A stretch of 64,000 nucleotides of DNA from Eukaryota sp. GEM-RC1 (Eukaryota). Of the stretch, positions 1 through 48,599 are shown one piece after another; positions within the stretch are counted from its first letter, which is position 1; each line of letters starts with the position of its first letter. Below the pieces are notes generated by a model, which ran no database searches, was not told where the DNA came from, and saw nothing but the letters and a program-made list of their open reading frames with translations. A program made the translations under genes and the position numbers. Where the stretch lies: NCBI GenBank assembly GCA_040285855.1, contig JAUFOQ010000010.1, forward strand, positions 1,302,001 through 1,366,000, given 5' to 3'.

Positions 1-2461
1 AGTTCCTTAAAACTATATGATTTCAACAAACAGTGCAGAGATGAAAGTTCTGGAGCTGATATTTGGGTAAAAGTTTGTGGTGAAAATCGAAAAACACCAT
101 TTTCAATGTCTAGACAATGAGGAGAAACATCAAGATCAATCACTGATTTGTTAATGGAAAGAATTTCAAATAAACAAATAATTCCTTCTAAACATCCAAT
201 TTTCCATCCACGATAATCAACATGTTTAATAGAAACATTTGACTTTAAAGCATTTAAAAGTGATACCAAGTCAGCACTGGTAACTTGATGTTCATAACGA
301 ATATAACCAAGAGAAATATCAATAACATGGGGAGAACACTTTATATTTGGCAAGAGTTCTTCTGTTAAACTTAGTTGAAAGATTTCCAAAAGATTATTTA
401 AGTTAGTTCCGCAGTTGGAGATGTTTACCGTTTTTAAACAAGAATTGGATTTGAACGCACCGATTAATGTAAATACTTGTTCAGGAGATAAATTGCAACA
501 ACTGAAGTCAATAGAAGTCAAGGAAGTAGAGAGCCTGATTAAATCACATAATTTAGTGATTGCGTCATTGGAAAAACGCCAATTGTTGAGGGAAAGTTCT
601 TTGATATTGAAAACTCCTAAAAGATTCTGTAGAGCTGAAACTTCTTCTACAGTTACTGGAATAGACTTAGATGGAGAAAAACCAACTACTCCATTATCCA
701 AGTCAATGCAATGAGGAAAGCAATCAAAACTGATTACAGATTTGTTTAGGGAATGAATCTCCAGTAATGCTAAACATGTTTTTAGACTTGGTCGTCTCAA
801 TCCTGGACAAACTACACTTTTAATAGGAACATTTGATTTTAAAGCTTCCAACAGTGAAACTAAATCATCATCAGATATTCTTTTTCGATAACAAATAGTG
901 CCAATAGAATGATTTAAAAAATGAGGAGAAACTGCAAAGATTATTGGTGATTGATGACTAGCAATGTGTTGAAAAATAAATGAAAGTGCATTAAACTCCA
1001 AGCAAGAATTATTGAGAAGAACTCTTTTAAGTTAGAATTGAACTCAAGTGCATGAACAAATTTGATGATACTGTTATTAGATAGTTTACAGAAACTGAAG
1101 TCAATAGAAATCAATGAATTATTGACCCTGATTAGATTACACAAAGCAGTGATTGCATCGTCAGTAAAACGACACTGTTTAAGAGTAAGATGTTTGATAG
1201 TAAAAGACTCGAGAAACGACTTTAAAGTTGAGACTTCTTCGGAAGTCAAGCGAACAAGTTCTTGAGGAGAATAACAAAACACACAAAGCTTCACCTTTTT
1301 AAAACAAGTATTGTTTTTAAACACTTCATAAAGATGTGCAGTTGGAATTCGAGTTCCACCAAAAGATATTTCTTGCAATGACAAATTATACTTAAGAGCC
1401 TCAATAACTGTAGAATCAAGACTTCTACAACTAGGAAACACCAGACTTCTGATACTAGACGTGTTTAGAAGAGGGACTAGAACACTTGAATCGTCTATAA
1501 CAAGACCAGATAAATCTAATGATTTAAGTGAGTTATTACTAGCTAAAGCAGTAAACAGAATCAGTGACTCCTCCTCTTTAATAGAAGACTGAAGGAAAGT
1601 AGGTAATGATACAGACAGTTTGATACTTGTAAATGAATGAATTGAACGAAAGAGTTCAACAAGAGCAATCACATCAGAAGTCGTTAAATCTCTAACATCA
1701 ATACTTAATTCAACAATAGTAGTGCTCAACAATAGAGCTTCACAAAAAGTACATGTAGTTAAGTGAGATTCAGACCGTGTGGTAAAATCAACAAATCTTA
1801 GTCTAGGTAAGAAGAGAGGAGAAGAGCTGTCAAGTAGATAGGTCAAATTGGTGACGTCATCATTTATCCTTAGACTAGTAATTCTTGAAGTGTAGTCAAG
1901 AAGTTCTTCAACTCTAAAGGATGGATCCACACTCAAGGCAACAGATGGTACGTCTGCTTGGAAGTAACAGGCTATGGGAAGAAGAAAAGGAAGATCGTAG
2001 GCGTCGACAGACAGTGTATTGGACTCAAAGAACATTTTAACTCCAAAGAAAGCAGCTACATAGAAACGGCGACTAACATAACCCACTTGTTGGATGAACG
2101 CAGGCAGTTTGTTGGTCAAACGACGGTGACGAGAGCGGTTGTTTTGCTTATAGATAGGAAAAGACTCCCAAAGATTTGTAAGCATGTGTGAACTGATGAG
2201 AGATACTAAAGATTCCTGCAAGTGGATGAACTGTGAAGAAGGAGGAATCAAACAAAGAGAGGGGAGAGAAGCAGTGGTAAGAGAGTCAGGGAGAACATCG
2301 GGACCAGAGGGACATGTAGAAGTAGATATTGTACATGAACTGCAGAGACAACTTGATCTCCATTGATCTCGGCATTTGAGGGAGCAAACATAGCGATCGC
2401 AACAGACTTCAATGAGACAAGCATCGACGGTTTTACAGAAGAAACAAGGACGTTTATCCAT
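1..2461 (-). CDS. LRR family gene A: Cys-rich Zn finger + F-box-like core + RNI-type LRR array; 3' end lies outside the window; one frameshift near 1024
   Basis: ORF 941-2554, likely ATG at 2461 (MDKRPCFFC..CCDRYVCSLKC); HLQESLVSLI..VGYVS core; LKSLDLSG-type repeats; 1-1000 is homologous to 25000-25960 in a shifted frame. Confidence 0.85.
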
Positions 2462-3399: not shown

Positions 3400-4936
3400 C
3401 ACAGAGACAAAAAAATGTAATTTGAATCATTGTTCTTGTACGATTTCATCCACTCCTCGTGTCAAACAAGTTGATCCTTTGGGCCCTTTTTCTTTTCTGT
3501 TTGCCCTTGCAAAGAATTCTTCGCAAATTCTCAAGCGAATTCCCAGGATTAAGGTTGAACTCGTATGCCTCTTTGGTTGGCCCTTTGGAAGTCATTAAAT
3601 CGAGTTTTCCTCGTTTTGTTGAATTGTCTTCAAGTATTGGTTTGTCAATTAATTTTCAAAAATGTCTTGTCATTGGACGTTCATCAGTTTATTTGAATTT
3701 TGGGGAATCTTCCATTCCGTTTGTCAATTATTCAGTTGAATGTGTCAAGTTTTTGGGCAATTATATTGGTAATGATGACAAAACTGATCAGACTTTATCA
3801 CATAAGAATAATTGTATCTTTCAGCAGCTTAACCAAATCGTTGATCTAGATGTAGGCAAACAAGTTTCTTTTGCTATGCTGCAAGTTTGTTTTGGTGGTA
3901 AAATTAATCTACGTGGTTTACCTTCTGAACTAACTCTCGAATTATCTCGTAATTTTAATTCATTGTGCACAAATTTTGTTAGTTATCCGGTTGGTAACAA
4001 AGACTCTTCATTTCCTTCTCATTGTTTCACTTCTACTTCTTTTGGTGGTATTAGTTTTACGAAAGCTAAGTACATGCGTGATGGTGCCTTTTTGGGCTCT
4101 TTGGAGAATTTTTGTTTGACTTTCAGAATCGTTATCATGTGTTATGGAAAACGAAAGATTTTTTACTTCACTCACCTTGTGCATGGTTAATTAGTCTTCA
4201 AAATTTAATTGATAATCTTGACTCCAATTTGTGGTCAGATTTATTTCCTGTTGTGGTAACAGAACTTCAGCAGAGAAGCATTTTCTCTTTGCCTTTGTGT
4301 GTTCGCAAGTTACAGAAGAAGTTTGTTTTGTTTCACGAAAGCTTGGACTTTAAGAACCGTATTAGTTTGGCTAAGACTCAGAGTCCCGCTTTTTGTGCAT
4401 TGTTGCATGATATTTATTCAAGATCTGCGTCTTCATTTGTTTCTCGTTTGCCAAGAAAATTTTGTTTCAGTCTTAAGGATCATGAATGGCTTATAAACAT
4501 GAGACATAGGTTAGGTTTATGGCCTTCAGGTCTTTTGAAGCATTCTCCATGTCTTTGTGGTCGTTCAAAGGCTTCAAATTTTCATCATTTAGTTAACTGT
4601 CATCAATTTATTCATTTTCATTTTAGATCAATAATTCACAACAGTATCAGGGATACACGTTTGGATATGTTTAAAGCTAATGCTTTTCATGGAAAAATTG
4701 AACCTGTACTTGCTAATCTTTCTGATCAGCAGAAAGTTGATAGAAGTCGCGGTGATTTGATTGGTCCTTGGTTATCTTGTCAGGAAATTATCATGGATTT
4801 CACAACTGTTGATCCTTGTATTTCAAGATCAATTTCCAAAAATTTTGATGATGATTTTTCTGCTCTTGAAGTGGCTGAAAAAGGAAAAAATACAAAGTAC
4901 TGCCACTTAATTAACCAATTGACCTTCCCACAATGA
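3400..4936 (+). mobile_element. Degenerate non-LTR retrotransposon fragment, RLE type (R2/CRE superclade): RT C-terminus/thumb, CCHC knuckle, restriction-like endonuclease
   Basis: GLSINFQKC and VKFLGNYIG (late RT motifs); CLCG..HHLVNC, HNSIRD, RGDL, MDFTTVDP, AE.GK..KY; the YLDD catalytic segment is missing. Confidence 0.8.
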
Positions 4937-5440
4937 AGAAGAGATTTCGAGACCAATGTTAATGATACAAATGTGTAGTGCGGTTAAGGTTCTGTGTAAT
5001 AAGTGAAATTGTACAATAAGTTGTGGATTTAGACACTCTCTTTATGAATACATCTTTGTAGTAAAAGAAACTACTGTGGATTTCTCCAACAAAAATGTTT
5101 GAGGACATAAATAGTATCACGATAAATTTAGTTTCACTACATAAATACTATTTATTAAATAGTCTCAGTGAGACTAATTACCACTACTTTTTGGAATTGG
5201 GTTGTTCGTTAGATAATTTGTACTAATAGCTCTATTTGTTGGCAAAATTGGTGATTTTAATCATTCTTGAATACACTATTCTTATGCTTACAGCTAAATA
5301 CCATCAGTTTGTAATCTGTTTAAGCATGTGTATTTTGTTTCTGTCAGGAATACGCAATGTGTTTTCACCGTCTGACGGATCAACAATCATTGTTTCAGTG
5401 TAACGACAGGAAAACAAACGAAATGTATATTACTAAAATA

Positions 5441-5555
5441 CGACAGGAAGGAGGAGTCGAACCCCTGGGTTAAGCAACCTCTGGCGTAATACTTGCCATA
5501 GCAAGATGAGCCTCGAAGGCCACGCCATATGTCCACTGGGACACAACATCCCGTC
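5441..5555 (-). ncRNA. tRNA-Sec-scaffold RNA, copy 1 (anticodon arm replaced by a 49-nt branched domain)
   Basis: GACGGGATG/CTTCCTGTC 9-bp acceptor with U.U; GTGTCC-CAGT-GGACAT D arm; GGTT-GCTT-AACC variable arm; GGGG-TTCGACT-CCTC T arm; discriminator G; TATTTT follows. Confidence 0.8.
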
Positions 5556-5610
5556 AATAATGATTGACGGGATTGGTTAATGTCCATATAATTTGAAATG
5601 CCAATGTGGG

Positions 5611-5624
5611 CAATCTGTAACACC
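5611..5624 (-). promoter_or_regulatory. Candidate PSE-like upstream element of tRNA-Sec-like copy 1
   Basis: GGTGTTACAGATTG at -69..-56; 10/14 match to the motif at the same offset upstream of copy 2. Confidence 0.45.
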
Positions 5625-5639
5625 TAGAAATTTATTGAA

Positions 5640-6324
5640 TCGTAACCGTTTTATTTCTTTTTAGAAGTAAGGTTCATGATTCAGTAAGGGATCAATTATA
5701 TTGTATGTGTAAATCTTATGGAATAGTTTCCTTTTTAGATCCAGTTCTGGCTGGTTTGTTTGATGACACAGATGTTGACAAATCGTTTGGAAATAGTCGT
5801 GATGTCATATTTCCTGTCCTTGATGGATCTTTCATTATTGCTGATGTTATGTCTATCGATGTTTGTGATGATTCCTACAAGAAACTTGCTAAATCTGATG
5901 CTAAAACCCCTTGTTGATTGGTGAAAAATTTAAAATACAAATATATTGTGCTAAATCAAATTATTGAATTCGACCTCACACTCGAATTACTTGTTGTACC
6001 CTTTCGTATTTTCACTATACGGTACTTTAGGTGAATCTGCATCATCATTACTTGAAATCTTTGTGAAGATTGTAAAAGAAAAAACATCTAAGACTTTTGA
6101 TCTTAGATTTTGGAAAAATCGAATCGTGTTTGCTATCTTTAAAGGTATGGTGACTTCTGTATCTAGCGCTTTATTATCTCTTGGCAGACATTATGAAGAT
6201 AAGGTAGGTGACAATTTCCAGTGAGGCAATCTAGACTTTGAGGATATTGATTATTAGATGTGTGTACACTGTAGTGTTGTTGTCTATCACTTTTAGAATA
6301 AATAAATAAAAATAAAGAAAAAAA
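5640..6324 (+). mobile_element. 5'-truncated RLE non-LTR retrotransposon 3' end with A-rich tail
   Basis: RSKVHDSVRD, RDVIFP..ADVMSIDV and YPFVFSLYGTLG RLE motifs; ends in aataaataaataaaaataaagaaaaaaaa. Confidence 0.75.
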
Positions 6325-8660: not shown

Positions 8661-9545
8661 GTCTTGTAAGAAATGTCATGAGTTTATCTCTAAATTGCCC
8701 AATACTTTGGACAACATTTCAAACTATGTTTTCTTATTGGTAAGCGGTTTGCGGATCTTATGTATGGTGAGCAATCTATCCAGTTTGTGGACTACAACAC
8801 TGAAGCTGTCCGTTTTTTGGGTTCCTATATTGGCAATCCTTTGCAGATTGAGAGTGTGTTCAATAATTATCTTCAGAAAATCAAAGTTCAATTGGAGACT
8901 ATACAAGATCTCAAGATCGATAACCACTTGGCTTTTTCAGAAAACTTTCGGTCTGTTTTGGATCGAAAATCAATCATCTTCTTAGATCTTTATCACCTGA
9001 GCTTTCTCTTGGTTTTGCTCGTGAGTTCAACTCTTTGAGAACTCAATTTTTAGGGAATTTGGTTGAAATCAATAGTTCCAAAATTCCTTATCATGCCTTT
9101 TCAGTTCAAAATTTGGTAGTGCTGGTTTTCCAAGAGCTGATTATTTATGTAAAAGTGCTTTCGTTGGTGGTATGAAGAACTTTCTTTTGAGAGTAAGCTT
9201 CGGTTCGAAAATATTTTCGATTCAGTTGTAGACGGCTCTTACGCTTTATTGAACTCTTTGGAGGAGTTAGTTCAAGGTTTGCCTATTGAAGTTTGGAACA
9301 AAAGTTTCCCGAAAAGTGTTTCATCTATTCCTGATCGGTCAATTGAATTTCTATCTCTTGTTGTAGTTAAGTTACAGAATGCAACATTACTTGGGTTGGA
9401 AGACTTGGATTTTAGTAAAAGACTTAGTGTGACTAAGATTGATAATCCCGTCTTTGCAGCTTTTTTATGTGACATTCAACAATGTTCTAGCTTCATCACT
9501 CAACAACCTAGACCTTTTGGTTTACATTTGAACAATGATGCTTGG
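8660..9545 (+). mobile_element. Degenerate RLE non-LTR retrotransposon fragment (RT thumb/linker)
   Basis: EAVRFLGSYIG, LDFSKRLSVTK, QQPRPFGLHLNNDAW; paralogous to 3700-4500. Confidence 0.7.
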
Positions 9546-11215
9546 AAAACTCTTTCAGTACATGAGTTGAAACTGCTCGATCACTCCCAAAACAAACTCA
9601 GATCTAAAAATGTGAGATCCTTGATACAGGAACATGACTTGTGCTACAGTATAGTACATGTATCAGTATAACTCTCATCACTCGCACTAAAACTACTTTT
9701 TGTACTTCATCCTCTTAATTGCCACACTCCTATCAATGCTAGTGTAAACATTGAAACTATTCATCTACCATCTTCTGAGTCATCATGATCACGATCCTGT
9801 AGATTTTGATGGAAACAAGAGTCAAATTGTTTTCATTTTCTTAATGTTCGTCTTTATCTTCATCAATATTCTCTTCAGACTTGAAGCTATCTCACACGAA
9901 CGATTGCCCTCCGTCTCATACCTCCACCTCTCCGTACATTTCCCCTATCTCTATCACCATCATTTTTGGGAAGTCTTCGCTATCTTTTCACAAAAGATAC
10001 AGATGAAATTTCTCAACAACTGACATGCTGCTGTTTTTAATGACTATCAGTTCTATCTATCATTCACCACTCATAGGTTGGTGGTTTCTCAGTCTGTTCC
10101 AATCTATATGGTTCATCGTTGTCAGGAGTCGTCTGGTAATTTCCAAAGTCGTACTGGATTCTATCATAATCTTTATTGGTGACAACATTCTGAAGATAAT
10201 CTCTCGTAATGTTTATGTAATTGACCATTTCTTTAATCTGAATATGATTATTTATTGAGTTGTTTTTCAAATTACATCAAATAAGTCTGTGAATGGGTCA
10301 AAACTGCATCTGTTTTTCAAAAAAATTGATTTATTTCAATCTTGGATTGAAATCCACTTCATTGTTTTCAGCAAATCCGAAATTTTGTTGTATTCTGCGG
10401 TCGTTCTATTCAACAGTTTTCCAATATATTAATATCGAAATCAGCTAACAGAATTACATCCGCAAATGGTCTGAACAAATCAGAAATTTGGCTTAGTTAC
10501 TGGCCACTACAAGGGAAAAACTCATGGGCATCAACTCGATTCAAAATTCTGTGAATTAATTTTTTTTTGCAATTTTCTAATCATTGACAGAAAATCTCTG
10601 TGAAGAAGAATACTTACTATTTCATCCTTACATTAAATCAGTGGTTGAAGAAGTAATAAACCTGGTGTCACCTGGAAAAAGTAATTTATTCAGAAACGTT
10701 GATTGAACACATCACGAGAAGTCTTTTGTTTTCTTCAATGTCAATAAAACTATTCAATAAGATTGTTGACAGCAACAATTCGTTCTTGTACATTCGATAA
10801 AGTAAGATCTAATTTATGAGCAGCACAATGAAGCCAGTTCACGACGTGTCGCTCATTCTTCTTTGGAGAGTTTGCTGCATATACTTGTATCATTGGTGCA
10901 TTCAGATAATACTTGTTGTCAATCCCACTTCGCACACTTGGGAATATCTCATATGTTCATAAGTGATAGGTATGGAACAAGACACCTTCTTTAGTGGTTC
11001 TGGATTCGCTGTGGTGACACTAACGAGTGTGACATCGCAGCTGTCACAGCATGTGTACAAGTTGGTAGAATTCGTCCGATTTGTCACATTAATGATATTG
11101 TACACGTAATTTGTTCTTTTTATAACACAATTTCTTGCAAAGTGGGAATGAGCTCTGCATTTAGGCCAAATATTGAACGTGAAAAAGATTTGTTAATGGC
11201 ATGTGACATAACTCT
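9546..11215 (-). mobile_element. Triplicated module, copy 1: decayed hAT transposase plus LRR-gene upstream region
   Basis: NWLHCAAHKLDLTLSNVQERI matches TWLPCAAHTFDLALTNVEGRI of the hAT near 50990; DNA is homologous to 19698-21335 and 30747-32255. Confidence 0.75.
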
Positions 11216-28620: not shown

Positions 28621-30073
28621 GTTTTCATATTCTGAGCCACTTTTTTACTATTTCATCGATCTTATTTTCATTTAGCATGCTGATGGTTTTAGTTCTGTGG
28701 ATCTAAGGAGATGGATCGAAATGGTAACTCAAAAATGAGTTCTTCATCATCAAGGTCTTCACTTTTTTCTGTCTGTCCCTTAAAGACTGCGATTTCAAAC
28801 AGCGAATATGGACTGTTTTGACTTTAACCAGATAAATAGTTTAGTGATCCAAACTTGGGAAACATTCATGAAAAACCGTTGGCTAAGTGAGCTGTTGTTT
28901 TTCCAGTGCATTGGAGGTAATCTGGAATACTTCAAAATGTTCGAACATTGTTTTCAGTTTCTGATCAACCAATATTTCGATCAGAAAATCTCTGTCAAAC
29001 TAAGAAAAAAACTGTTAAGTCTCATATTATGAGATGGGATTTAGATATGATGAAGCAAAAATATGTTTGAACTTCAAACATTGAAATATTCTGCTAGATA
29101 TGGCTTGTTGGCCATTGACAGCTATTCTGCCATACGCCGAACCGCGCATGGAAAATATATTTTTGTTATGTCGCAACACTGGTAAATTTAATTTTAATAC
29201 TAGTAATCAGGTAGGTATGTGAACACTCTTTCCTAACCTAGACATGAGCACTTGCTTTTAAACTCTGCACGACGCTTGCGATGCTTTGCTGCATTGTAAA
29301 CCTTTTCACCGATTCTTTCTATGTAATCAGTAAACCAGTTACAATGTTTTCGTCATGGGACTTCGGTAAAACGTGGTGATCATCACTTTACTTTTCGATC
29401 AGGTAGTCAACATCATTCTTAGATCCATATATGGTTCGTTTAAACTTCCATTTTACATTGCAAATATCCAGGGCTCTTCAAAACTGAAATGGCAATTCAT
29501 TGAAGTTGAAAAATAGTTCTTAATCAGTTTTTCCATCATTTCAACTCATTGTTCAACTGTTTGTCATTATACTTGACAAAAAAAAAGTTCAAAGTTGATC
29601 TTTTAGTTACTTTTTCTTGTACTTAGATAATATATACAATGTCCACTGTTCGTCCGAACTTTCATCGACGACATCTATAGACACATCTTTCAAAAGCAGT
29701 GATGTTCTTCAAATCACACACAAAATTAGCAAAAACGGGGTTTGTTTTTTAGCCGAGCTACGACCAATTTTAGAATGCAATCATTCATCAATATGTCGGA
29801 AGTTGATTTTGCAACTCAAGAGACCCAAAATATATTTTAATATAACTTCACTGGTAGAACTACAGTAGATGCGGGGAAACGTCATATCATGGCACCAAAT
29901 CTGAATCAAGTCAAGTGTCTGAAAGTGTGTGTCTGTTGTTTTAGACAGTAAAACTACTTGTGTATTGACAGCACAAACTGTATGGAAAAACAGCGTTCAT
30001 TAAAATATGATCGATATCGATTGTTTTAGTCTATTGGAAACAAAAAGCAAGATAAATGTTTGTGATCAAGAAA

Positions 30074-30201
30074 TGACGGGAAGGAGGAGTCGAACCTCTG
30101 GGTTATGGAACCTAGGATGACTGAGGTGCGCAAGTCGCGACTTAAAGGGAGATATCCCCTGAACGCCAGTCCATATGTCCACCAGGACACAGCATCCCAT
30201 C
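30074..30201 (-). ncRNA. tRNA-Sec-scaffold RNA, copy 2 (anticodon arm replaced by a 62-nt branched domain)
   Basis: GATGGGATG/CTTCCCGTC acceptor with U.U; GTGTCC-TGGT-GGACAT; GGTT-CCAT-AACC; GAGG-TTCGACT-CCTC; discriminator A; TTTCTT follows. Confidence 0.8.
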
Positions 30202-30256
30202 ACCAATTTTATAATCTGCAGAAATAATAATAAATCACTACAGGAACAACACCGAT

Positions 30257-33159: not shown

Positions 33160-33281
33160 TGTTAGCACAGCAAGTGTCAACACGTGTTCTAGTAGTGAAC
33201 TGTAGCATTATTTTACTTAGATTACTCTCTCCCCTTATAAAGGTACCGTCCTTTTCACTTTCAGCCTTAAACAAGGCATCA
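33160..33281 (+). repeat. 5' LTR (122 bp)
   Basis: tgttagcacag...aaggcatca; 3 C/T differences versus the 3' LTR. Confidence 0.95.
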
Positions 33282-33322
33282 ATAGCTATTGGCCGTACAA
33301 TAAGGCCTATCTAACCTCAAGT

Positions 33323-34877
33323 ATGTCAACTAAACCCCAAACTTCACTTCCAGCATCACACCTTCTTGCTGACCAGGTACGCTTCGTAGCACCGAAGCTG
33401 TCCTCCCTCTCTACGAATGCCGTCGCCCGCTTCGTCCAGGAAGTCTCTCACTTCCTCCAGGCCTCCGAGCCTGACCAATCCCAAAGTATTCCTTTGACAG
33501 AACCAACTGTGTTTCCTTCCCTCTCCGCTTCCATTCCTTCAGCTGCTGAACGCTTAGCTGAAGTCGAACAAATGATCCATGCCGCCTTAAGAGAATCGCA
33601 CCCTGAGGGTTTTGACCCTGAAACCTTTGCCGCCTACTGGTCCGCCGCCAAGAAAGTCACAATTGCCGCCAACCCCCCTTCTCCTAAACCCTCTTCAGAA
33701 ACCTCTATGCCCAAGTTCCTCAAAGATGATGCGGAGGCTCTAAAACGCAACTTAAAGTCCTCTTAGTTATCTCACTCCTCTTCCTCCCCTCATCAGCTTG
33801 ATGACTGGGATGGCCCTTCATTTTTCGATGACCCTCCTGTTCCTGAAGGCTTTTATCGCATTATCCTCCCAAATATACTCAGCCTAATACGTATTATGTG
33901 TCCAACCGCCCTTTCTAGCCAGGAGAACCTGTGGATTTATCTACTATCCACCATAGCCGCCAAAGACGCCTCAGAAGCAAGAAGATTGCTGAATTCACTC
34001 TCAATGAAAACCCCAGGCCGAGAACCCCTTACATTCTACATCCTAGATCTCCAGAAAGCTGCCCAGAGATGCAAGAACTTGCTGAACACCTCCAGGCCGA
34101 AACCTCTAATGGAAAGCTTCATTCAAGGCCTCAAACCCTACACTTTAAAAACCAAACTGATGGACGAGTTCAAGATGAACCTCATTCAGGACATCGATTC
34201 GCTAATCTCCAGAACGATCGCGCTCAATGAAACTATAGCTCCAGAAGAAACGAACCCCAAATTCCGCAATCATCAAAGAAGAAATGATTTTAGAAACACT
34301 AACTCCAACTTTGGAACCAGAACTCCCTATCCAAATTCCAACCTCCGAAATAAAGAACCAGCCGGCGAAAAGAACAGCTGCTCTTTCTGTAAGAAAGACG
34401 GCCACGTTATCGAAGACTGCTTCGATAAGTCGTGTAAGAAGTCGAAACATTATGATCCATCGGCCCCGCAAACGAAGAAGCCGTACTCAAATCCAAGGCT
34501 TCCAAGACCAACCTTTGGCAATGCTAAGAGATCAACCAGAAGCTCTAAAAATAATTTTGTCGCTTCCAGAGAGCAATGCTCTGAAAGTCTCCACTCTACC
34601 ACCATCTCAGACGACGAACCCATAGAGTTCGAGCTAGAACTCCCATTTATCAAACACTTTCCTTTTGATAAACCCAAGAATGTCAATGCCCAAAGCCTCT
34701 GCCGAAACAATGGATGATCCTCTCCCAGTGAGTGTTCCGCAGGAATTAAGCTCTTCCTTAAAGGAATTGAGCCGAATAACAGGATCGGGTTTCGACCCTT
34801 TTCTACCTGTGAGAGATACGCCACAACGGGATGGTGACTCCAAAGTTAACGCAGTTGCCAAAGCTACCGAAGGTTAA
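33323..34877 (+). pseudogene. gag: gag region (interrupted), with CCHC knuckle
   Basis: FIQGLKP motif; CSFCKKDGHVIEDC. Confidence 0.8.
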
Positions 34878-34879
34878 TC

Positions 34880-37800
34880 AAATCAAGAACCCTCCAAACT
34901 CTTATCTCTTAAAGTCCTTGTAAACAACACTCCCTTCGAAGCATGCCTGTGAAACCTCCTGCTTCTCCGAAGATATCGCTAAAAAAGCCGGATGCCAAAT
35001 CGTCGCTAGTAGATTTAAATTCACTCTAGCCAATGGAACAAACATCCAATCTCCTGGAACAGCCAACGGTATACTGAGCTTCGAATTCGACCGGATTCTC
35101 TCTCCGTTGGTACACCTGAAATGCCAGATCCCAATTATACCAGGAGTAAACCAATTCCTAATTGGATGTGACTTATTGTCAAGCCTCGGCCTACTTAAAG
35201 CAAACTCACTGATGATCAACTTGAACAAAGAACATTCAAAGATCACAGGAGCCGAAGCCACCCTGGACCACCTAATGGTCGACACACCTAGGAAAGGCCT
35301 CGTCGCTTCAACGTCCACAACTTTAGACGTATCAGAAAGTAGAATCGAGCTTCCCGAAGAAACCGAAGAGAAATTGCTGAAAATTCTAAACAAACACAAA
35401 GATGTGTTCGGAAAACCCCATCCCGAAGGCATAAAATGTAAACCAATGACTATCCCGTTTTTACAACGAGGGCACAACCTGCAAGAAAGCCCCAAGAAAC
35501 CTAAACCCTACTAAATTGAGAATCGCCAACGAGATCTTTGATGACCTCATCGAAGACGGATTCGCCGAAGAAACCTCGACTGAGTCTAAATTTAGCTCTC
35601 CAATCGTCTTGGTAATCTACCCTGACGGTAAAAAACCCAGATTAACAGGGAGACTACTCAGGAACTGGAGGTGTGAACGCTTCCACCAAGCCGATTGAAG
35701 CCAATCTACCCAAGATATCAGACGTATCTATCTTCCTCTCAAATGCCAACTTCATTTGCACACTAGACCTCCCGAAAGCATTTTGGCAAGTTCCGCTAGA
35801 CCAAGCAGACTACCAGAAAACTACACTAAGCATCCCAGGCCGTTCAATATTCTTCAAAAGAGCCGCCTTCGGACTAAAGAACGTGCCTGCGTTCTTCCAG
35901 AACTTGATGCAAGACATCTTCTCCATGCCTAATGTCTTTATTTACATGGACGATGTAATCATCGCTGCTTGCACAGAAGAAGAACTGCTTTCCACGTTAG
36001 ATGCCATACTAACGAAAGCAGTCGAACAGCTCGCACACGAACTGCTTCCCTAACCATCAAGAATCTAATTTGTAACGCCTGCAATCTAGCTCTTCCCGAC
36101 GGAAACGCAAAAATTGTAATCTCAACAGACGCCTCTGACAAAGCTATCAGCGGAGTAGTTTGGAAGAAGCTCGACAAGACCCCTACGACCTCTCCGCTAG
36201 AAGATCAAAAATTAGAACCAATCAGCTTCTTCTCGAAGACCTTGACGGATAGCCAAATGAACTGGCCAATAATGCAGAAGGAACTTTTCGCGATAATCTG
36301 TACCCTGAACCAGCCCGCCATGGCCAACTTCTTGATGACACGACAGCTAACGATTTTCTGCGACCACAAGAACATCGTTTACCTGATTAACCAGCCAGAA
36401 CGAAATCGGATCGTAACCCGCTGGATTCCCCTACTTTCTAACTTCTCTTTCGAAATCATCCACGTCGAAGGTCCAAACAACGTATTCGCCGACCTCCTTT
36501 CACGTCTCACGCCCGCTAACCCCAGTTTAGAATCAGAATTACCTGAAACTTCAACATGCTTTAGCTTATTTTCAGTAGAACTCTACGAGACTGAATACTA
36601 CTTTGAAGAAACCCCAACAAAGACCGAATGCCCCAAGTGTGGAGAACGCATGCCCTACTTAACCATGCCCGACCACATACCCTGTGAAGGCCCATACTTC
36701 GCATGCAGAAACTGCCTCAACAAACTACAACCCCACGAAGTCTACAACGATGATGAACGCAGAGCCCTGCTTCACTTGTATCCGAAAGAAGACACGCCTA
36801 TCAAAGACTACTGCGGCATCTTCCAGCTAGACAAAGCAGGCCCTCGGAAATACATTGAACGTAGAGACGACCACATCAAGGAATTATGCTTCCGCTTCGT
36901 AAAGCACAAAGGTCTCATCAGAAGTCTAGAAAAGAAGAACTCTTCACTAAGGAAACTAGTAGAACCCCCTGCCAAAATCAAAATAATTGAACCAGAATCG
37001 AAAATTCCATGTGGCCATTGCAACCACGGAACCACCGACTTGGAACTATGTGCCAGCCACCACCAAGTAACAACATATCAAGAACGACTGGTCTGCCACA
37101 GTTGCAAGAAATATACAACCGACCAGATGCTGACAGAAGCCAAAGATAAACTAAAGAAAAGAAAAACCAAAAACTCCCACGAGAAGCTCCTATCGTACGA
37201 CGGTACAGGCTCGTATTCGTAGACGCCCTTACGAGATACACCATCTTATGTCCCTCAGACAAAATCTCCGCTACAAACTCAGCATACTGTCTTATCAACG
37301 CGGTGTGCGCCAACGTCGGCATACCCGACATGATCCACTCAGATAATGGACCCGAGTTTTGTAACGCCACCTTTAAAGCATTATGTGCCTTTCTGAACAT
37401 AACTAACTCCTTTTCGCTCCCTCACCACCATCAAAGTAATGGTCTGGTTGAGCGAAGAAATCGAGAAATCAACCAAACTCTGAAGAGATTTCTCCTAGAC
37501 TTAAACGACTTCCAAAACTGGTCGACTCAACTACCTATAGTACAGTTGATGATCAACAATCAACGCCACTCAGTTACCAGATGTACTCCATGGGAACTAA
37601 TGTTTGGATCTCCAATCGACCCTAGAAAACCTGCATCAGATCTACTGGAAAACTAACATCCAAACCACTACAAGAAACAGGCAACGTGTTTGTCAATGCC
37701 CTCGCTGCAAGAACAACCTACTTAAAAGGAAAGTGGGAAGAAGCAGCCAAGAACCAGCAAAGTCATCTGGACAAACTTAGACCCAACTCAAAACCGGTCA

Positions 37801-38195
37801 AGAACCCCTTTGTCGTTGGTGACCTCGTACTTCGAAAGAATGACCAACCTCAGCGCCTGCACGGCTCATGGTTAGGCCCTTTCCAAGTGCTAGAAAGCTC
37901 TCCCGACTCCACGAAAGTTAAAATTCTAAACTTCGTCTCAGGTAACGAACTCACAACCTCCAGCTTGCTCCTTCGCCTATTCTTGGCCCACTCATCCAAC
38001 AAGGAGTATCTGACCGCCATCGCCGCTATGGACCAGCAAGAGTCTATACTTGTGAAGGTGCATGACTTTGATCACAGATCTAACAGAGCCCATGTAGAAT
38101 GGATAGACGGCTCTACATCTATGGAACCTCTCGATGAAATCCGCAAGACCACCGCATGGTCCAAGGCCAAGCACCTCCACGATGTTCCCCTTTGA
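34880..38195 (+). pseudogene. pol: pol region: decayed protease, RT, RNase H, Cys-rich insert, partial integrase, chromo-like tail
   Basis: FLIGCDLL; LDLPKAFWQV, AFGLKNVP, YMDD; TDASD..ELFAII..CDHKN..NVFADLLSR; HSDNGPEF..SNGLVERRN; WLGPF; frameshifts and deletions. Confidence 0.9.
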
Positions 38196-38245
38196 AAACA
38201 CTCGCTGTTCTTAAAGCCATGAGAAGCTTCAAGAAAGAAGAGCAT

Positions 38246-38367
38246 TGTTAGCACAGCAAGTGTTAACACGTGTTCTAGTAGTGAACTGTAGCATTATTTT
38301 ACTTAGATTATTCTCTCCCCTTATAAAGGTACCGTTCTTTTCACTTTCAGCCTTAAACAAGGCATCA
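38246..38367 (+). repeat. 3' LTR (122 bp)
   Basis: Direct repeat of 33160-33281, followed by CTAC. Confidence 0.95.
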
Positions 38368-39409
38368 CTACATGTAACAAGTAATTTTTTTGAATGAATG
38401 GACAAACGGGTTTATATTTTTCACATGATATTACCAACATGGTCTTTTAACTCATCACAATCTGCGAGGTAAATTGGTGGTCCATGTGGCACCAGTAACT
38501 TACCTATAAGAAAGCTGACACTATCTTAATAAATTTCAGCTGCTATCTTCAGCAGATTTGTTTATCAGGACATTTCAGTTATGTTTTTTATGGAAGTGTA
38601 TTTGAAGTTGAGGTCATAACATTAACCACCCAGTAGTTACCCGGATGTGCTTCCAAACACTGATTGTGGTACAACTTACTAGGATATGTCTCATAAGTGG
38701 ACATTGCAAACCTTCAACTAACTCACTGGTTTGTCTATTTCCCTGAGACTAAATTCCTGATGAGACTTATTCACACAGTGACAGTAATTGTAATCAAACC
38801 GTAACATTGCTTATTACTAGTACAATTGATTGAGAAAAGCCATTGATGGTTAGGTATACCATTTCTTCAATGACGTTTATAAACCATAGTACATTAAAGC
38901 AAAGCTGTAGACAATTGACGGTGATCAATTTTTCAAGGATCTCGAAGAACTGTGTAAAGAAAAGATGCGTAAGTTCAGAATGGCTGGATGGAAAAACCGT
39001 ATTGTGTTTTTCATGTATCGGAATATGTCTTTCTATTTCTCTGGATTAGTTGAAAAACCGTACAAATTTTATGTGAAGGTTAATGTTGAAAAACATAATC
39101 TTTTACCGGATAGCCATGTATTGTAATACCAACTCTTCCCATACATATGTTTAGTACAACTCATAATAACTTCTTTGGACCCATAAACCTGTGTAGAAGT
39201 GTGTGAATTGATGTCAACAAGCTGAGAGGTCAAAGATTATTCAAGAAAAAGGCAAAACTGGCGATGTACCAACACCAAGCCGAAATTATCAAATAGAACA
39301 GTTTACCTTCCCATAGTTCATGTTTAAATAGTCCCAAAATTAAACAATTTTATACAACAATACAAACAAATTCTCAAAGAAACAAGGCTTAAACTGTAGT
39401 GGTGATGAT

Positions 39410-42023: not shown

Positions 42024-45000
42024 ATGTTTGTCACTGAACCTCCACTAAAGACAAGTCGTTCTCCGAATGGTACTCTATCTACTGATTTAGCCAATGACTC
42101 CTCCAGTGTCTCTAACTCACAATCATCTCTAGACTTAACCACTTTTTTGTCAGGTGACAGTCATTCTGTAAGCAAGCATATACGCCTCCAGCAATCTCTA
42201 TTGATACTGATAGACTTCCATCTACTGAAACGTGTCATGAAATCTTCCAAAACAGCAAATCTTCGACCTTCCCAGCGTTTAGCCAAATGGTTGTCCTCCC
42301 CTTACTCCCATTCCCAGAATGTTGCATTGGTGAGCCAGCATTTCCTAAATTCTCTATTATCCGCTTTCAGAGTGTTTCTTCAAACCACTATTCTTCCTAT
42401 AACACGGGAAGACCTTCCACGACTTGCTTCAATCAACGCCTACTTTCAAACACAAGTAAAGTATGTGTCTCTGCATGTGCACCGCTCCTTTGACGTTCTA
42501 GATCTCCTTGAGTTTACTCCAATAATCTCAAACTTATCAGTTAATGATTTGACTCACCTACATCAACTTCTTGACCCTTCTTCTTCTTTTATTATAGCTG
42601 CACTTGCAAACAATTCAGTTATTCAAACAGTTGATTTTTCTGAACTTCGCATCCATACTCCAAGTGTTCTTGAACCACTCATGAGCAGTTCTAGTATTAA
42701 AAGCATTGTGTTTCCTCACAATTTTGATTTTGATTCTTCAGTAATTAATTCCATCAATGAAAATTCAGCAATTACAACAGTTTGTCTTAAAAAAACTGAG
42801 TGTACTTCTCCAAGTGTATATTCCTCAATTGCTAATTTAATTAAATTTGACAATTCTTTAAAAAAGATGGTTCTAGACGTGTGTAAATGTTATTTACCTT
42901 CCATTTTTGAATCTTTGGGAACAAATACTTCGTTGTTAGAGCTGATTCTTCATTCATACGGTTGTGGCTGTAAAATCGAAGGCCTTCGTAATGAGCAATC
43001 GTTGTTCAGGATGATACAGCGGAATACAAGTTTACTTGTCCTAAGTCTTGGAGGTTCAATTTTTGATTCATTCCTGTTAAGTGCCGCCATGAGGGCACTT
43101 AAAAGTAGATCGTCGTCACTTAAAATTGTTTGTTTGTCGGATTTACAGTTCAAATCAGTTGTCCTGTCATACAATATATTATCGGCCTCAAATTCAATAA
43201 TGTCACGTATTCAACTTCATCCTCATTATTTTGATGTATTGCATGGATTTTTACACTTTGACAATACGATCAATAATTGTGATCTTGTGCACATTTTAGA
43301 GGCACTAAAGTCAAATGTTCGGTTTGAAAGAATCACTTGTCAAGGATTGAGAAGTCCCAGTATGAACGGCATTATTACTTTATTCAAAATTCTTTCTATT
43401 AAGAGGACAGTGATTGAGCTGGATATCTCCCCCAGCTTACTTGATATTGAAAGTCGCGTGTTCTGTTATTCGCCCACAAATTTTGTCAGTTTAACTCGAA
43501 ATAATATCACGTCATTACAGCGTTTTGTGAATCGATTTGCTATTAAAGTGCTGACCATTAAAAATTGTTGTTTTGATGACCAATCAATAGATGCTTTGTC
43601 TGGTTTAATTAGGACCAATAATTCATTGACTTCTATCAACTTCAGGTTTCCGATACTCTCGAACACTGATTTTGCGCTACTATTTGGTGCAATTCTATAT
43701 AATTCTAGTTTACGTAAGGTAGTTGTGAACTCATGTTCCTCCAAAAGTCATAATCTTTGGACTATTGTCGAATGTGAATGTTGTAACATGTCACTTCCAA
43801 CCAAGATCTCAGTCAATCAATCAAATGAATTCGGTTGTTTGGTGAGAACTTTTGGTCAACTTTTAGCTCGCAAGTCAATTGATATTATTGAAATGTTTGA
43901 TCATTCAATTAATGTTGGTTGTGGCTACATTCGTTTCAGCAATACAATTAACTGCACTGATTTAGCAGTGTTATTAGAGGCTTTAAACTCAGGAGTCCCT
44001 ATTAAACGTGTTGATTGTCTTGGATTGAGGACTTCAAGTTTAGAAGAAATTATTACGTTTTTCCTGATTCGTTCTATTAACAGCACAATGCTTGGCTATG
44101 ATATTTCGCCGAATCGTCTTGATATCGAATCTGGGGCATTTTGCTATTCTCCAGAAAGGCAGACCCGGATCACCTCCAAAGACGTCTCACGTCTACAACA
44201 GTCTTTTCTTTCTTTTAAGTTCTTTCGTAGCAAAGAACTTACACTAAAGAGGTGTGCGTTTTTAGGAGAAACATTCGATGCATTGTGTCATTTTATTAAT
44301 GCAAATAATTCATTGACTTCTGTTAACTTCAGTGAGTGCATACCATGTGATGACAGTTCATATACGTCACATCACCAGACTGGTACAAGTTTCACAAAAT
44401 TCATCAGTAAACTTCACTACAATTCGAATTTAAAGAAAGTTGTTCTCAAAGATTGCAACATTGGACTATGCATTCTCTTAACAATTCTTGAACTAAACTC
44501 ATCTGGAAATGAAACACAGAAGTTTAATGTATCTCCTCATAGTATTGACTTTAAGAATGGTTCGTTTTGCTTTTCGCCAGAGCATCTTACTAAAATAACC
44601 ATCAATCAAATTTCATCTCTAAATTATTTTATCCAAAGCAGCGGGTTCAAAAATCTAACTTTAAGAGGATGTCGTTTTACTGAAACTACCATTAATGTTT
44701 TGTGTGATTTACTCAATCTCAACAATTCATTGACTTCTGTTGACTTCAGCCATTGTGATCTTTCTGATCAAGCTTTCTCTCAATTGATATCTGCCCTTAA
44801 GTTAAATTCCTCCTCAAAACTATCAAGAATTTGTATGATTCGAAATTCTATTGGATCGGGAGGAGCATTCGCATTGTCTGAATTATTAAAAGGAAACACT
44901 GTGATTAAGGAGATCTACATATTTGGAAACACTATTGATGATGATGGTGTAATTGCATTAGCTGAGGCATTGTCAGTAAATTCAACACTTACTCGAATCG

Positions 45001-45245
45001 ATCTAGGTGACAACCATGTTGGGTCTGCAGGTGCTGTAGCGTTGGCATCAGCTCTAAAAAGAAACATCTCAATTGAAGACGTATGTCTGCATGCGAATTC
45101 TATTGAAAATGAAGGTGCGATTGCATTGGCTGAAACTCTTTTAGAAAATTCGTCAGTTACTAACATTGATTTGGGTTTTAACTCTATTGATACCGGAACG
45201 GAACAGTTCGTTGAAAGAAATTCAAAAGGACGGATCAAGTTTTAA
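42024..45245 (+). CDS. Intact LRR family gene D (Ser-rich N-terminus, F-box-like core, composite LRRs, canonical 28-aa RNI repeats)
   Basis: Uninterrupted ORF, first ATG at 42024; HIRLQQSLLILI..VALVSQHF core. Confidence 0.9.
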   Translation: MFVTEPPLKTSRSPNGTLSTDLANDSSSVSNSQSSLDLTTFLSGDSHSVSKHIRLQQSLLILIDFHLLKRVMKSSKTANLRPSQRLAKWLSSPYSHSQNVALVSQHFLNSLLSAFRVFLQTTILPITREDLPRLASINAYFQTQVKYVSLHVHRSFDVLDLLEFTPIISNLSVNDLTHLHQLLDPSSSFIIAALANNSVIQTVDFSELRIHTPSVLEPLMSSSSIKSIVFPHNFDFDSSVINSINENSAITTVCLKKTECTSPSVYSSIANLIKFDNSLKKMVLDVCKCYLPSIFESLGTNTSLLELILHSYGCGCKIEGLRNEQSLFRMIQRNTSLLVLSLGGSIFDSFLLSAAMRALKSRSSSLKIVCLSDLQFKSVVLSYNILSASNSIMSRIQLHPHYFDVLHGFLHFDNTINNCDLVHILEALKSNVRFERITCQGLRSPSMNGIITLFKILSIKRTVIELDISPSLLDIESRVFCYSPTNFVSLTRNNITSLQRFVNRFAIKVLTIKNCCFDDQSIDALSGLIRTNNSLTSINFRFPILSNTDFALLFGAILYNSSLRKVVVNSCSSKSHNLWTIVECECCNMSLPTKISVNQSNEFGCLVRTFGQLLARKSIDIIEMFDHSINVGCGYIRFSNTINCTDLAVLLEALNSGVPIKRVDCLGLRTSSLEEIITFFLIRSINSTMLGYDISPNRLDIESGAFCYSPERQTRITSKDVSRLQQSFLSFKFFRSKELTLKRCAFLGETFDALCHFINANNSLTSVNFSECIPCDDSSYTSHHQTGTSFTKFISKLHYNSNLKKVVLKDCNIGLCILLTILELNSSGNETQKFNVSPHSIDFKNGSFCFSPEHLTKITINQISSLNYFIQSSGFKNLTLRGCRFTETTINVLCDLLNLNNSLTSVDFSHCDLSDQAFSQLISALKLNSSSKLSRICMIRNSIGSGGAFALSELLKGNTVIKEIYIFGNTIDDDGVIALAEALSVNSTLTRIDLGDNHVGSAGAVALASALKRNISIEDVCLHANSIENEGAIALAETLLENSSVTNIDLGFNSIDTGTEQFVERNSKGRIKF

Positions 45246-45749
45246 ATGGTTCCTGTTCGTCTTATAACCTAATTTTAATTTGCATTATCATTATGAAATG
45301 GGGATGACAAGTATCTTAATAGTATAAATATGTTATACTATAATAATCACTTGTTTGTAATCAATATTACTCTATCGAGATTCATTATTCATTCTTAATA
45401 TACATGTATAATTCCCATAAATGTAATAAAGTCTGTAATTCTTTTTTCCGAGGACATCGACATGCCAATCAAATCACATGTGATCTTATATCTCAAAATT
45501 GAGTCAAAAAATACTGTTCTTTTTGTGTAAAATTGAATACCTCTCTACTTTTTTTTATTGATGTGACCTGTAGGTTTATAGTGAATAAACTCATATAATC
45601 AACTGAAAAAGTAAAAAAAGTGACGTATACTAATGACATCATTGAAGATAAAACAAAATGTACACATATAAATCAAACAGCTATAAACCCTTACAAGATT
45701 AGCTTTTTAATAACGATCATCTAGAATATGACACATTCCCTCTATTTTA

Positions 45750-47120
45750 ACTTTGTTATTAATTTTGGACACATTTGCCAACACTCTGGCACCTTCAGCT
45801 CCAATAGAGTTTTCAAGTTATAACTTTAGTATTAACATTTAACGCCTCTGCCAAACATACATCTTCATCTGTGATAGAGTTTCCCTGAAGATACACAATC
45901 TTAACTACACTATTGAGTTATAACGCATCTGCCAAAAATCGTGCACCTTCAGCTCCAATAGAGTTGTACGACAGATCAATACTTGTAACTGAAGTATTAA
46001 CTTTAAAAGATTCTGCTAAAGTTCTAGCACCTTCATCTCTAATGGAGTTGTCCTGCAAACGAATACGCAAAACTGTAGAATTAATTTGCAAGGCATCTGC
46101 TAAAGCACTAGCACCTTCAGCTCTAAGATTATTGAAATCAAGATTAACACCTGTAACTGTAGTATTAACTTTCAATAATTCAATAAATGTCATAGCATTA
46201 GAAAAGAACGCTGAACACGCACATCAAGATCTTTAAGTCGTGGAAAAATCAAGGAAGACTTGTTCAGAAACTCCAAGTCATTATGATTCTTCAATACAAA
46301 TTCCAATCCAGAAAATATATTAGAACAACTATTAAATTCTTCAACATAAAAGGTATCGTATACGTGCAAGAAAACAGATTGTTTCTCTGCTCCAAAGAAA
46401 GAAGCAAATGAAGAGATTTGAGAAAGATATTCAGGAATGACATGAAACGTGTTTGTTTGAAAAAAACAGCTTGGTTGATAGCATAGAAGAATTAAAGAAA
46501 TGATGGCTTACATAGCCAACTTTCTTAAAGAAAGTACGAAGATCTTTCTTCAAGTTAAGAAGGGGACAATGAGGATTATCACGATTTCATTCGAGAAAAA
46601 AAACTGACAAAGACTTCTCAACAAGTGAATATGAATTAGAATCAGCAAAGACTGTGGAAAGTGTAAGCATCTTAAAGGAGATTGGAATGAGGAAGTCATA
46701 GGGAGGAGTTCAAGTGGTTTAGGTTCAGCATTAGGTTTATAAGAGAAAGTACTAGTATTCAATGGTTTAACAGAAGACTGAGGAGCAGAAGCTACATAGG
46801 TACGGATAGGGCGGTCATGGATCTTAAACATCCAGTACTTATCTAAACATTGCTTGAGTCCTTGAACATGAAGAAACTCGACAAAGAACGTGCCTGGAAT
46901 ATTACTAGGAGATCGAACTTCTTTAACGGGAAGAGATGAGAAGGCTTGCTTAATGTCGGCTTCTGTAGCACTGTATGCAACGTTCACGATTTTGGCAGTG
47001 AAGGGGGCTTCAGGGGGAAGTTCATATTCTTCGAGGGATGTACGTGGGGTGGAAACTTGGGGTTGTTCACCGGCTATTGGATTACAAGAAGATCGAGTAG
47101 GTTCACTGTGGATGGAAGAT
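45750..47120 (-). pseudogene. RRM (eIF4B/4H-like)-F-box-like-LRR gene E, disrupted
   Basis: LPPEAPFTAKIVNVAYSATEADIK..TFFVEF in frame with LHFPQSLLILIHIHLL; downstream homologous to gene F, with an in-frame TAA and deletions. Confidence 0.75.
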
Positions 47121-48599
47121 CAGCACATGTTTGAGTATAATCTTCATCGAGGTAAATCAAAATGGGACAAACTACTACTAGTAGTAGGTCGTTTCCTTCA
47201 ACACCATCAAATGCATCCTCCCTTTTTCATCTACTCTTCACGTAACATCTTATTACATAGATACCGTGATCAGATACGTCATCACTCCTGTTCAATAACA
47301 AGATATTGGCTCGTTTCCATGATTTGGGTTCTTCTTCACTTCAAACACGTCTGAAAACACGCTTCTCCATATGTCCCTTGGATTCTCTGTCTACTTTATG
47401 TTGGTCATCTTTACTATGTAAGTATTTTGCCGTCAATTTGTTTGATTACTATTACTTTTTTTAGTTGTGAGTCCACTGATTATTTCTACGCTTACTCTAA
47501 AGCAACTACTTAGACTTTTGTATCACTACAAATTAACAAACTCAATTTAAACTCTAGTATCTTCCGTGTCCAGGATGTTACTATTAGAAGGACGTCGTCA
47601 TTAAACAAAGATGAACGAATTATAAGGAAAAGCTCACCATATACTAATGTAATTGACATTCTGATCACCCATGGTCTTTTGTTAAAGGTTTTAGATCTGT
47701 AGATGCGGTTTAATCTGATCCAAACATTCAAGGACAAATTGTTGAATTTTGAAAGAACTTTAGTAATTATTTTAATAATATGCAGTTGTTCTATCTAGTG
47801 TTCGAAGAAATTTCATCCACTCAGAATCAACGTGATTTCGGGAAAAAAATTAACTGACACGTCATCATCTGTTTATCTAATGTATAGGTAGAATCAGTTA
47901 TCTTCATGGTCATGAAGAATATTTAATTTGTTTTGAGAACAAAATAAGTTGTTCAATTCAATTATGGAAATTGAAACAACTACTTTCTGGGCCTGTAAGT
48001 AAAGTTTTAGAAATTAGTTGTTATATGTCCCAGTTACTGTTTTACTGTGACTGCTATTTGGACACTCTAAATGTACCAATGACAAAGCAAAATTCAATCC
48101 ATTTGTCGCCAAAATTACATTATGTATGTGTCCACCCAGGCTATTCCACTTTAGTGAAATTGCCTTCCTTCACGGCCAGCAACTCGATTACACAATATTC
48201 TTTCATATCTGACAATTTATTTTGACTTAATTATCAGTGGAAATGCTTTTTGAGTGGGTATGTGTGGACATAGAACTTGATAAAACATTGCATTGGTTGG
48301 TCTGTACTTTTCTAGTTTTAAGACTTGGAGTACTGTTTTCTTCCCAAAAACCTCAATTGTTCGAGTTTCACCTGGATTAACAAATATAGCAAGATCAATA
48401 CTTAGCGACTTTCGACCACCCCCTCGAACACGAAAAGAAGAAGGATCTGAGTTCTTCTTTTTTCTTTTGACATTGTTGGCTTGTCAGTCTTCTAGCCGCC
48501 GAAGGTTTAGATTAGAGTACTGAGAAAGCACAGTAGCATTGCTTTTTTCTTCCAGCTCAAAAGAATCTTTTGTTTAAACTCTAACGGTCAGCTGTGCTC

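Follow-up and report, generated by a model that had tools for sequence, protein, structure and literature searches.

Two tRNA-Sec-shaped genes of a skoliomonad flagellate that lack an in-register anticodon loop and may be non-decoding tRNA mimics

The eukaryotic tRNA-Sec gene is normally single-purpose. Its product is recognized by enzymes of the Sec pathway through the acceptor domain, the D arm, the variable arm and the discriminator base G73 (PMC7609411); for SerRS, PSTK and SepSecS, the features recognized are G73, the variable and D arms and an acceptor domain of 13 bp (PMC7609411, PMC2330242, PMC9976931). For archaeal PSTK, the anticodon arm is dispensable (PMC2330242). Position 18 and discriminator 73 are described as fully conserved in eukaryotic tRNA-Sec, and extra copies of the gene in eukaryotes as either intact or pseudogenes (PMC5330540). 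The same paper names Daphnia pulex as the only eukaryote with a known intron-bearing tRNA-Sec. In bacteria, some allo-tRNAs and selC* RNAs are untranslated, form five-stem junctions and lie near transposable elements (PMC5389517), features that the two genes described here appear to share.

The two genes, copy 1 (c1) and copy 2 (c2), occur in a 64-kb stretch of DNA, referred to here as the window, from which alone all statistics were computed. For the one ordinary gene examined in the window, the closest named proteins bear the labels Eukaryota sp. GEM-RC1 (84–88% for the top five) and TZLM1-RC; Skoliomonas sp. GEM-RC is described as an anaerobic metamonad flagellate (PMC11316075). The main text of that paper contains no mention of tRNA or selenium, and the supplements searched yielded one unrelated row. 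Sec synthesis is known from other metamonads, namely Spironucleus (PMC3916229) and Preaxostyla (PMC10703272). The window consists of AT-rich, eukaryotic DNA crowded with leucine-rich-repeat genes, one kinase gene and transposon fragments, and the surroundings of both copies are rich in broken genes and transposon fragments. The leucine-rich-repeat genes at 121–27735 and 42024–59821 are expanded, with near-identical tandem duplications at an offset of ~9.7 kb, and their arrays are adjoined by a RING/B-box gene family and by hAT-like and Tc1-like transposases. An LTR retrotransposon at 33160–38370 (plus strand) has short LTRs (~125 nt) that are 97% identical, and the usual tRNA-primer TGG is absent directly after its 5′ LTR. 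A role of c1 or c2 as primer for this element was rejected, since neither gene has a 3′ end complementary to the bases that follow the 5′ LTR.

Copy 1 is 115 nt long and occupies 5441–5555 on the minus strand, with G1 at 5555 and G73 at 5441. An earlier note had described it as a tRNA-Sec scaffold with a branched RNA domain in place of the anticodon arm, and every letter of the sequence given there matches the window. The tRNA-Sec shell is borne out as well. The 9-nt acceptor 5′ strand (5547–5555) forms eight of nine pairs with 5442–5450, the mismatch being U6.U67; the D arm (5529–5544) has a complete 6-bp stem and a 4-nt loop; the variable arm (5468–5479) comprises 4 bp and a 4-nt loop; and the T arm (5451–5465) has all four of its pairs and an intact B-box-type T loop. 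The D stem, the variable stem and the T loop are the same in c1 and c2. Of the diagnostic features listed in the note, U6.U67 and G73 are present in c1, but its D loop carries A18 instead of the invariant G18. The central domain (5480–5528) measures 49 nt, as had been reported, and its predicted pairing agrees with the earlier drawing: a closing stem of 5527–5522 with 5487–5482 (probability 0.86) and hairpins at 5521–5509 and 5505–5492 (0.81 and 0.96, respectively). As a whole, the c1 RNA is only modestly more stable than its shuffles (z −1.98).

A second scaffold, to which the note had alluded, was located at 30074–30201 (minus strand). This copy is 128 nt long, keeps G18 and has A73 as its discriminator. 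Its central domain of 62 nt (30113–30174) is closed by a stem with a 3-nt bulge. A search pattern for the Sec shell matched the window twice, at c1 and c2, and matched none of 100 shuffles. When the whole window was compared with 4227 Rfam families, the tRNA-Sec family (RF01852) matched 5442–5555 with 33.0 bits (E 0.012) and 30075–30201 with 34.5 bits, both below its gathering score of 47; an intron-bearing control tRNA-Sec reached 57.8 bits. Default ARAGORN called neither copy and Rfam at its own cut-offs returned nothing, so standard tRNA finders miss such genes. A model (R1) built from the two scaffolds, as had been suggested, recovered c1 and c2 in the window but no third copy, the next best match scoring 9.3 bits. 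Neither this model nor nhmmer gave further or truncated copies in the window above noise.

The two shells differ far less than their surroundings. Of 23 shell pairs, 22 are standard in c1 and c2 alike, the exception being the Sec-typical U6.U67. Only 3 of 46 stem bases differ between the copies, each as a switch between Watson-Crick and wobble that retains the pair, whereas loops, linkers and the discriminator differ at 6 of their 20 bases (Fisher p 0.018) and the 3′ flank at 11 of its first 30 (~37%). With the neutral rate taken from loops and flank (30–37% divergence), the binomial probability of three or fewer changes among 46 stem bases is 1e-4 to 2e-6. Because the stems are conserved together with their pairing while loops and flank have diverged, the pattern indicates selection rather than decay. 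No shell pair has changed on both sides and covariation is limited to wobble toggles; the pattern is thus one of conservation, not covariation. Random stem decay across copies was an outcome raised in the earlier note; the 64 kb contain two copies, neither with a broken stem. Judged from these sequence comparisons, the evidence points to purifying selection on the tRNA-Sec shell across both paralogues. The same pattern could have arisen by recent gene conversion, with a true tRNA-Sec as donor, or by descent from a master copy under selection.

Neither copy retains the full Sec identity set, since each lacks one invariant. Copy 2 has all of G18, G19, U55, C61 and C66, and c1 deviates with A18; G73 is present in c1 and replaced by A73 in c2. 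Among tRNAs with a long variable arm, A73 is a determinant for Leu, not Ser, whereas G73 is one for Ser (PMC9976931). The proposed role as a decoy for SerRS, PSTK and SepSecS draws support from the G73 of c1, but as a role shared by both copies it is weakened by the loss of G73 in c2, in favor of a Leu determinant, and by the loss of G18 in c1.

The central inserts behave differently from the shell. Their overall similarity (p 0.002) resides chiefly in the first bases, and past position D+11 it falls to p 0.08. A closing helix is predicted in both inserts (0.86 in c1, 0.51 in c2), built from different letters. The inner cores fold no better than dinucleotide shuffles (c1, 34 nt, z −1.24, p 0.11; c2, z −1.50, p 0.08), and segments of similar sequence have different pairing partners in c1 and c2. 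Elsewhere in the window, the longest match of an insert is 10–11 nt, as expected by chance, and no complementarity above chance was found in the window. These results leave the aptamer or guide domain envisaged in the note unsupported; a guide role in particular is disfavored by the chance-level complementarity within the window. In tRNA introns, structure is usual and conserved terminal motifs are generally absent (PMC10275265). The insert behaves like such an intron and unlike a conserved domain, and probably combines an old intron with an anticodon loop that has been displaced. The c2 insert also contains, at 30132–30143 and 30147–30158, a perfect 12-nt palindrome without a loop and a hairpin whose center is self-complementary; these could be a trace of fold-back mutation or could allow dimer formation.

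The register of the Sec anticodon loop was set by the control tRNA-Sec, in which U33 lies at D+8. In this register, the loops read U32 G33 GCC U37 in c1 and U32 G33 GCG U37 in c2, and with G33-GCC and G33-GCG in that place neither copy is expected to decode. The earlier call of a non-decoding RNA is accordingly supported as the most likely one, the anticodon loop being absent from the Sec register of both copies. The associated claim about splicing also holds: c1 has no U33-UCA in any register from D+6 to D+19.

Both copies have U33 at three other registers, D+7, D+12 and D+13. At D+7, the anticodon would be GGC in both; c2 shows a canonical CU-GGC-GA on a 3-bp stem, and c1 has G32 and C37. 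At D+12, displaced 4 nt to the 3′ side of the Sec register, c1 reads C-U-UCG-A (5513–5518, minus strand) and c2 reads G-U-UCA-G, with its U33-UCA at 30164–30159. Compared with the control Sec loop, c1 matches at five of six positions and the two copies jointly at six of six, for which the simulated chance is ~0.01 (0.04 for c1 alone). The c2 bases that precede the D+12 loop pair with the c2 3′ strand, and the corresponding 3′ strand of c1 stops one base short of the variable stem. The D+12 hexamer is likely a relic of the Sec anticodon loop, shifted by 4 nt; the signal is modest and post hoc. At D+13, both copies read U-U-NNN-G; the copy with G73 would then carry a Ser(CGA) anticodon and the one with A73 a Leu(CAG) anticodon, a match with a nominal chance of 0.0012. 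This concordance is the strongest result counting against the reading of c1 and c2 as mimics.

Excision at position 37/38 does little to restore a canonical loop. Among the excisions listed for c1, 0 of 21 are canonical; one c2 excision is, but its stem has 3 bp and is one base short. The excision script requires three inner pairs and missed the arm of the control, making it conservative; the register table is free of that filter. An anticodon-intron pair with a 3-nt bulge is possible in several registers and is therefore not discriminating. The outer stem takes up the 3′ strand in its pairing, and in spliced c1 the predicted probability of the displaced loop's own stem is near 0. Readings as Ala(GGC), as Gly/Arg, or with a re-registered canonical D arm are disfavored by the excision, register and folding analyses.

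Outside the genes, homology between the copies extends for ~65 nt on the 3′ side (p 0.0005) and is absent from the 5′ side (p 0.4–0.67). The c1 3′ flank (5372–5440, minus strand) has T4 runs at +3 and +27, and the homologous c2 flank (30009–30073, minus strand) has a T5 run at +28. The T run at +27 or +28 in both tails is a putative terminator, and homology that continues past it favors duplication at the DNA level. A segmental duplication was rejected, as the flanks are unrelated outside the element and its tail when compared with nhmmer. Ten nucleotides of the c1 3′ end (5437–5446) recur in direct orientation 36 nt downstream (5401–5410), and pieces resembling the c1 5′ end lie further downstream, at about 5370–5385. 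At c2, the four bases before G1 (30202–30205, minus strand) are complementary to the c2 discriminator plus CCA, probably by chance.

Upstream of c1, the flank is replaced by a degenerate, 5′-truncated retroelement fragment (5584–6251, plus strand) that stands head to head with the gene. Its family is abundant, with only skoliomonad-labelled proteins among the matches, and the longer members carry the reverse transcriptase domain PF00078 (20 of 34 relatives). Searches of Pfam and PDB sequences with the flanking retroelement protein gave no name. Its C-terminal motifs presumably correspond to a zinc knuckle and a restriction-like endonuclease (REL-type). Further fragments occur at 3410–4921, 5182–5223, 8694–9668 and 38915–39090 (plus strand) and at 29692–29748 (minus strand), so that both copies have fragments nearby. 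Elements that target tRNA genes insert head to head with them; c1 provides a single case of such placement. A perfect 11-bp inverted repeat (5548–5573) overlaps the c1 5′ end and sits exactly at the junction of gene and retroelement. It is the only perfect hairpin of at least 11 bp in the window, versus 0–1 in each of five shuffles, and is possibly a fold-back scar of the insertion. If transcribed, this leader hairpin would, by prediction, tie up the 5′ strand of the acceptor. Insertion of the retroelement beside c1 can explain the sharp 5′ border of homology.

Relatives were sought in collections that cover few eukaryotes, so that a lack of matches does not indicate that relatives are absent. 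A family-specific pattern had no matches in metagenome contigs, and a slightly shorter pattern had one, in viral contigs. The latter was rejected as a homologue, because it is phage sequence that resembles a tRNA and has an end of 7/5 type: at 290–415 (minus strand) of locus L046, a tRNA 3′ half is found with a long D-like hairpin ~60 nt further upstream, and ARAGORN calls no tRNA. It is perhaps another tRNA look-alike. A general pattern of Sec shell plus long insert matched 45 outside loci, of which 6 are viral, 28 come from metagenomes and 11 from prokaryotes. Just two of them have a Sec shell, namely L010 (182–287, minus strand) and L020 (359–464, minus strand), which represent one sequence on short metagenome contigs. 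They are ordinary intron-bearing tRNA-Sec of eukaryotic type and provide the control used above; the 57.8 bits of L010 come from Rfam, which was applied to 20 of the 45 loci. Against the two-copy model, L010 and L020 were again the best of the 45 (36.5 bits), and the best ordinary tRNA scored 22.7. No RNA of this kind was found in the literature searched, the coverage of which leaves out most subscription papers.

The best explanation, held at a probability of roughly one half and resting on two copies, is that c1 and c2 form a small family of non-decoding mimics derived from tRNA-Sec. Both likely descend from an intron-bearing tRNA-Sec. Insertion of ~4 nt just behind the D arm would have displaced the Sec loop, which would then miss the site needed by the splicing endonuclease, known to measure from the tRNA body (PMC10275265), and by the ribosome. 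The gene with the displaced loop would afterwards have been duplicated as DNA. Transcription would proceed up to the T run at +27/+28. The polymerase is uncertain: in Trypanosoma it is Pol II that makes tRNA-Sec, and in vertebrates transcription of the gene depends on external promoters (PMC2943599), and Pol III transcription of c1 and c2 is therefore not established. RNase P and RNase Z would trim the ends and CCA would be added, with no productive splicing. The product would adopt the Sec-type L fold, either with the old loop and intron as a passenger or cut to a non-canonical loop, and would bind shape-reading tRNA enzymes away from the ribosomal decoding site. The G73 copy (c1) may be serylated, with handling by PSTK and SepSecS possible if these are present in the cell, and the A73 copy (c2) may be leucylated or uncharged. 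The object of selection would be the shape and neither the amino acid nor the insert fold. Counting against the mimic reading, the retroelement fragment 5′ of c1 and the 11-bp inverted repeat could silence or misfold c1.

The copies could instead belong to a multicopy, SINE-like repeat with a tRNA-Sec head, in which selected master copies are spread by a retroelement and single copies are inert. This account is unlikely, though less so than the other alternatives. It suits two dispersed copies per 64 kb without segmental duplication, homology that begins at G1 and takes in the 3′ tail, and a large reverse transcriptase family in the lineage with fragments near both copies. Several of its expected traces are missing, however. 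There is no target-site duplication longer than 6 nt (the longest shared flank word is 6 nt), the tail is unmatched in three retroelement-adjacent regions of the window (best p 0.06 among 12 comparisons) and has no additional copies there, and a third or truncated copy is likewise absent from the window. The sharp 5′ border is possibly due to the retroelement insertion beside c1. RNase Z cuts the tail behind a paired tRNA acceptor stem, and the full acceptor stem kept in both copies would invite such removal. An improbable alternative is that c1 and c2 are spliced tRNAs on a Sec body, c1 for Ser(CGA) and c2 for Leu(CAG), whose anticodon arm exceeds the normal length by 5 nt. Both have U32 U33 NNN G37 at D+13, a cut to A38 with an anticodon-intron pair is possible, and the anticodons agree with the discriminators (G73 for Ser, A73 for Leu; PMC9976931) at the nominal chance given above; such tRNAs would explain both the selection on the shell and the unlike discriminators. 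Yet this test was post hoc and uses the same hexamer as the Sec relic. Read one base further on, the relic gives Leu in any case, so each signal depends on the other. Five surplus bases would separate the D arm from the anticodon stem, and the decoding fold is predicted to lie 8–11 kcal/mol above the best fold, with a stem probability near 0 for c1 and for a 39-nt excision of c2. A 26-nt excision of c2 gives 0.6 for 3 pairs, but leaves 13 extra bases. Moreover, ~10% of shuffles per copy contain a canonical loop in one register or another, as do 26–35% of simulated pairs. In the weaker GGC (Ala) variant, the canonical D+7 loop of c2 stands alone, set against C37 and G32 in c1.

It is doubtful, more so than the Ser/Leu reading, that the shell serves to display the branched insert as a selected payload (aptamer or guide), or that the RNA is a dedicated decoy of Sec enzymes. 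The predicted closing stem and inner hairpins of both copies, the maintenance of that stem with unlike letters, and the G73, 13-bp acceptor domain and 6-bp D stem retained by c1 would all suit such a role. They are offset by inner domains that are no more stable than shuffles (p 0.11 and 0.08), by similarity past D+11 that is not significant (p 0.08) and like parts that pair differently, by a longest window match of chance length (10–11 nt), and by the absence of G73 from c2. Two dead tRNA-Sec pseudogenes are very improbable. One invariant base is gone from each copy, copies without G73 are usually pseudogenes (PMC5330540), and broken genes and transposon fragments abound in the locality; even so, not one shell pair is broken despite 30–37% divergence of loops and flank. 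Finally, and again unlikely, a Sec-bodied RNA family may have taken on new jobs, either as charged carriers outside translation or as the overlong-arm Ser(CGA)/Leu(CAG) tRNAs. In the carrier version, the G73 copy would serve as a bench for phosphoserine or selenocysteine synthesis and the A73 copy as a leucine carrier. The Ser/Leu version, if true, would be the first eukaryotic counterpart of the bacterial allo-tRNAs.

Under the preferred reading, as non-decoding mimics, c1 and c2 represent a type of RNA that is apparently undescribed so far. If the anticodon was lost and every stem nevertheless selected, the Sec body would have been reused without decoding in a eukaryote. Since Sec enzymes read that body and not the anticodon, the two genes would test whether serylation, phosphorylation and Sec synthesis serve purposes outside the ribosome.

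Compared with known systems, c1 and c2 share with eukaryotic tRNA-Sec (RF01852; Daphnia pulex and L010/L020) the 9/4 fold, U6.U67, the 6-bp D stem with its 4-nt loop, the extra arm, U55, C61 and C66, and with the D. pulex gene (PMC5330540) and L010/L020 an intron-sized insert behind the D arm. They differ in that neither has an in-register U33-UCA (at D+8 in the control), the U-UCA of c2 being displaced by 4 nt and preceded by G32, and in having A18 (c1), A73 (c2), Rfam scores below the cut-off, and excisions that yield no canonical loop. Tail and surroundings recall tRNA-derived SINEs, which likewise have a tRNA head from +1, a 3′ extension and retroelements nearby. Unlike these, c1 and c2 comprise a whole cloverleaf with a paired acceptor, and their flanks in the window showed neither a target-site duplication nor a tail derived from a retroelement nor an end rich in A.

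The bacterial allo-tRNAs and selC* RNAs (Mukai et al., PMC5389517) resemble c1 and c2 in their Sec-like body, long D stem, tetraloop, extra arm and non-Sec anticodon region. However, allo-tRNAs are bacterial and have a 12-bp branch of 8/4 or 9/3 type and a defined anticodon, whereas c1 and c2 are eukaryotic, with a 13-bp 9/4 branch and no in-register loop. The nematode nev-tRNAs (PMC3333845) are likewise eukaryotic, lineage-limited derivatives of class II tRNAs with an anticodon outside the identity set; in contrast to c1 and c2, they descend from tRNA-Leu, possess an ordinary anticodon arm and are able to decode. In the bacterial Y RNA YrlA and in tmRNA (PMC4201824), as would be the case here, a tRNA elbow serves as a handle for enzymes without codon reading. 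Thus, c1 and c2 fall outside tRNA-Sec, allo-tRNAs, canonical intron-containing tRNAs and, by the tests made in the window, SINEs. By analogy, they would be most like untranslated allo-tRNAs (PMC5389517) and tRNA mimics (PMC4201824) in their working, built on a eukaryotic Sec body.
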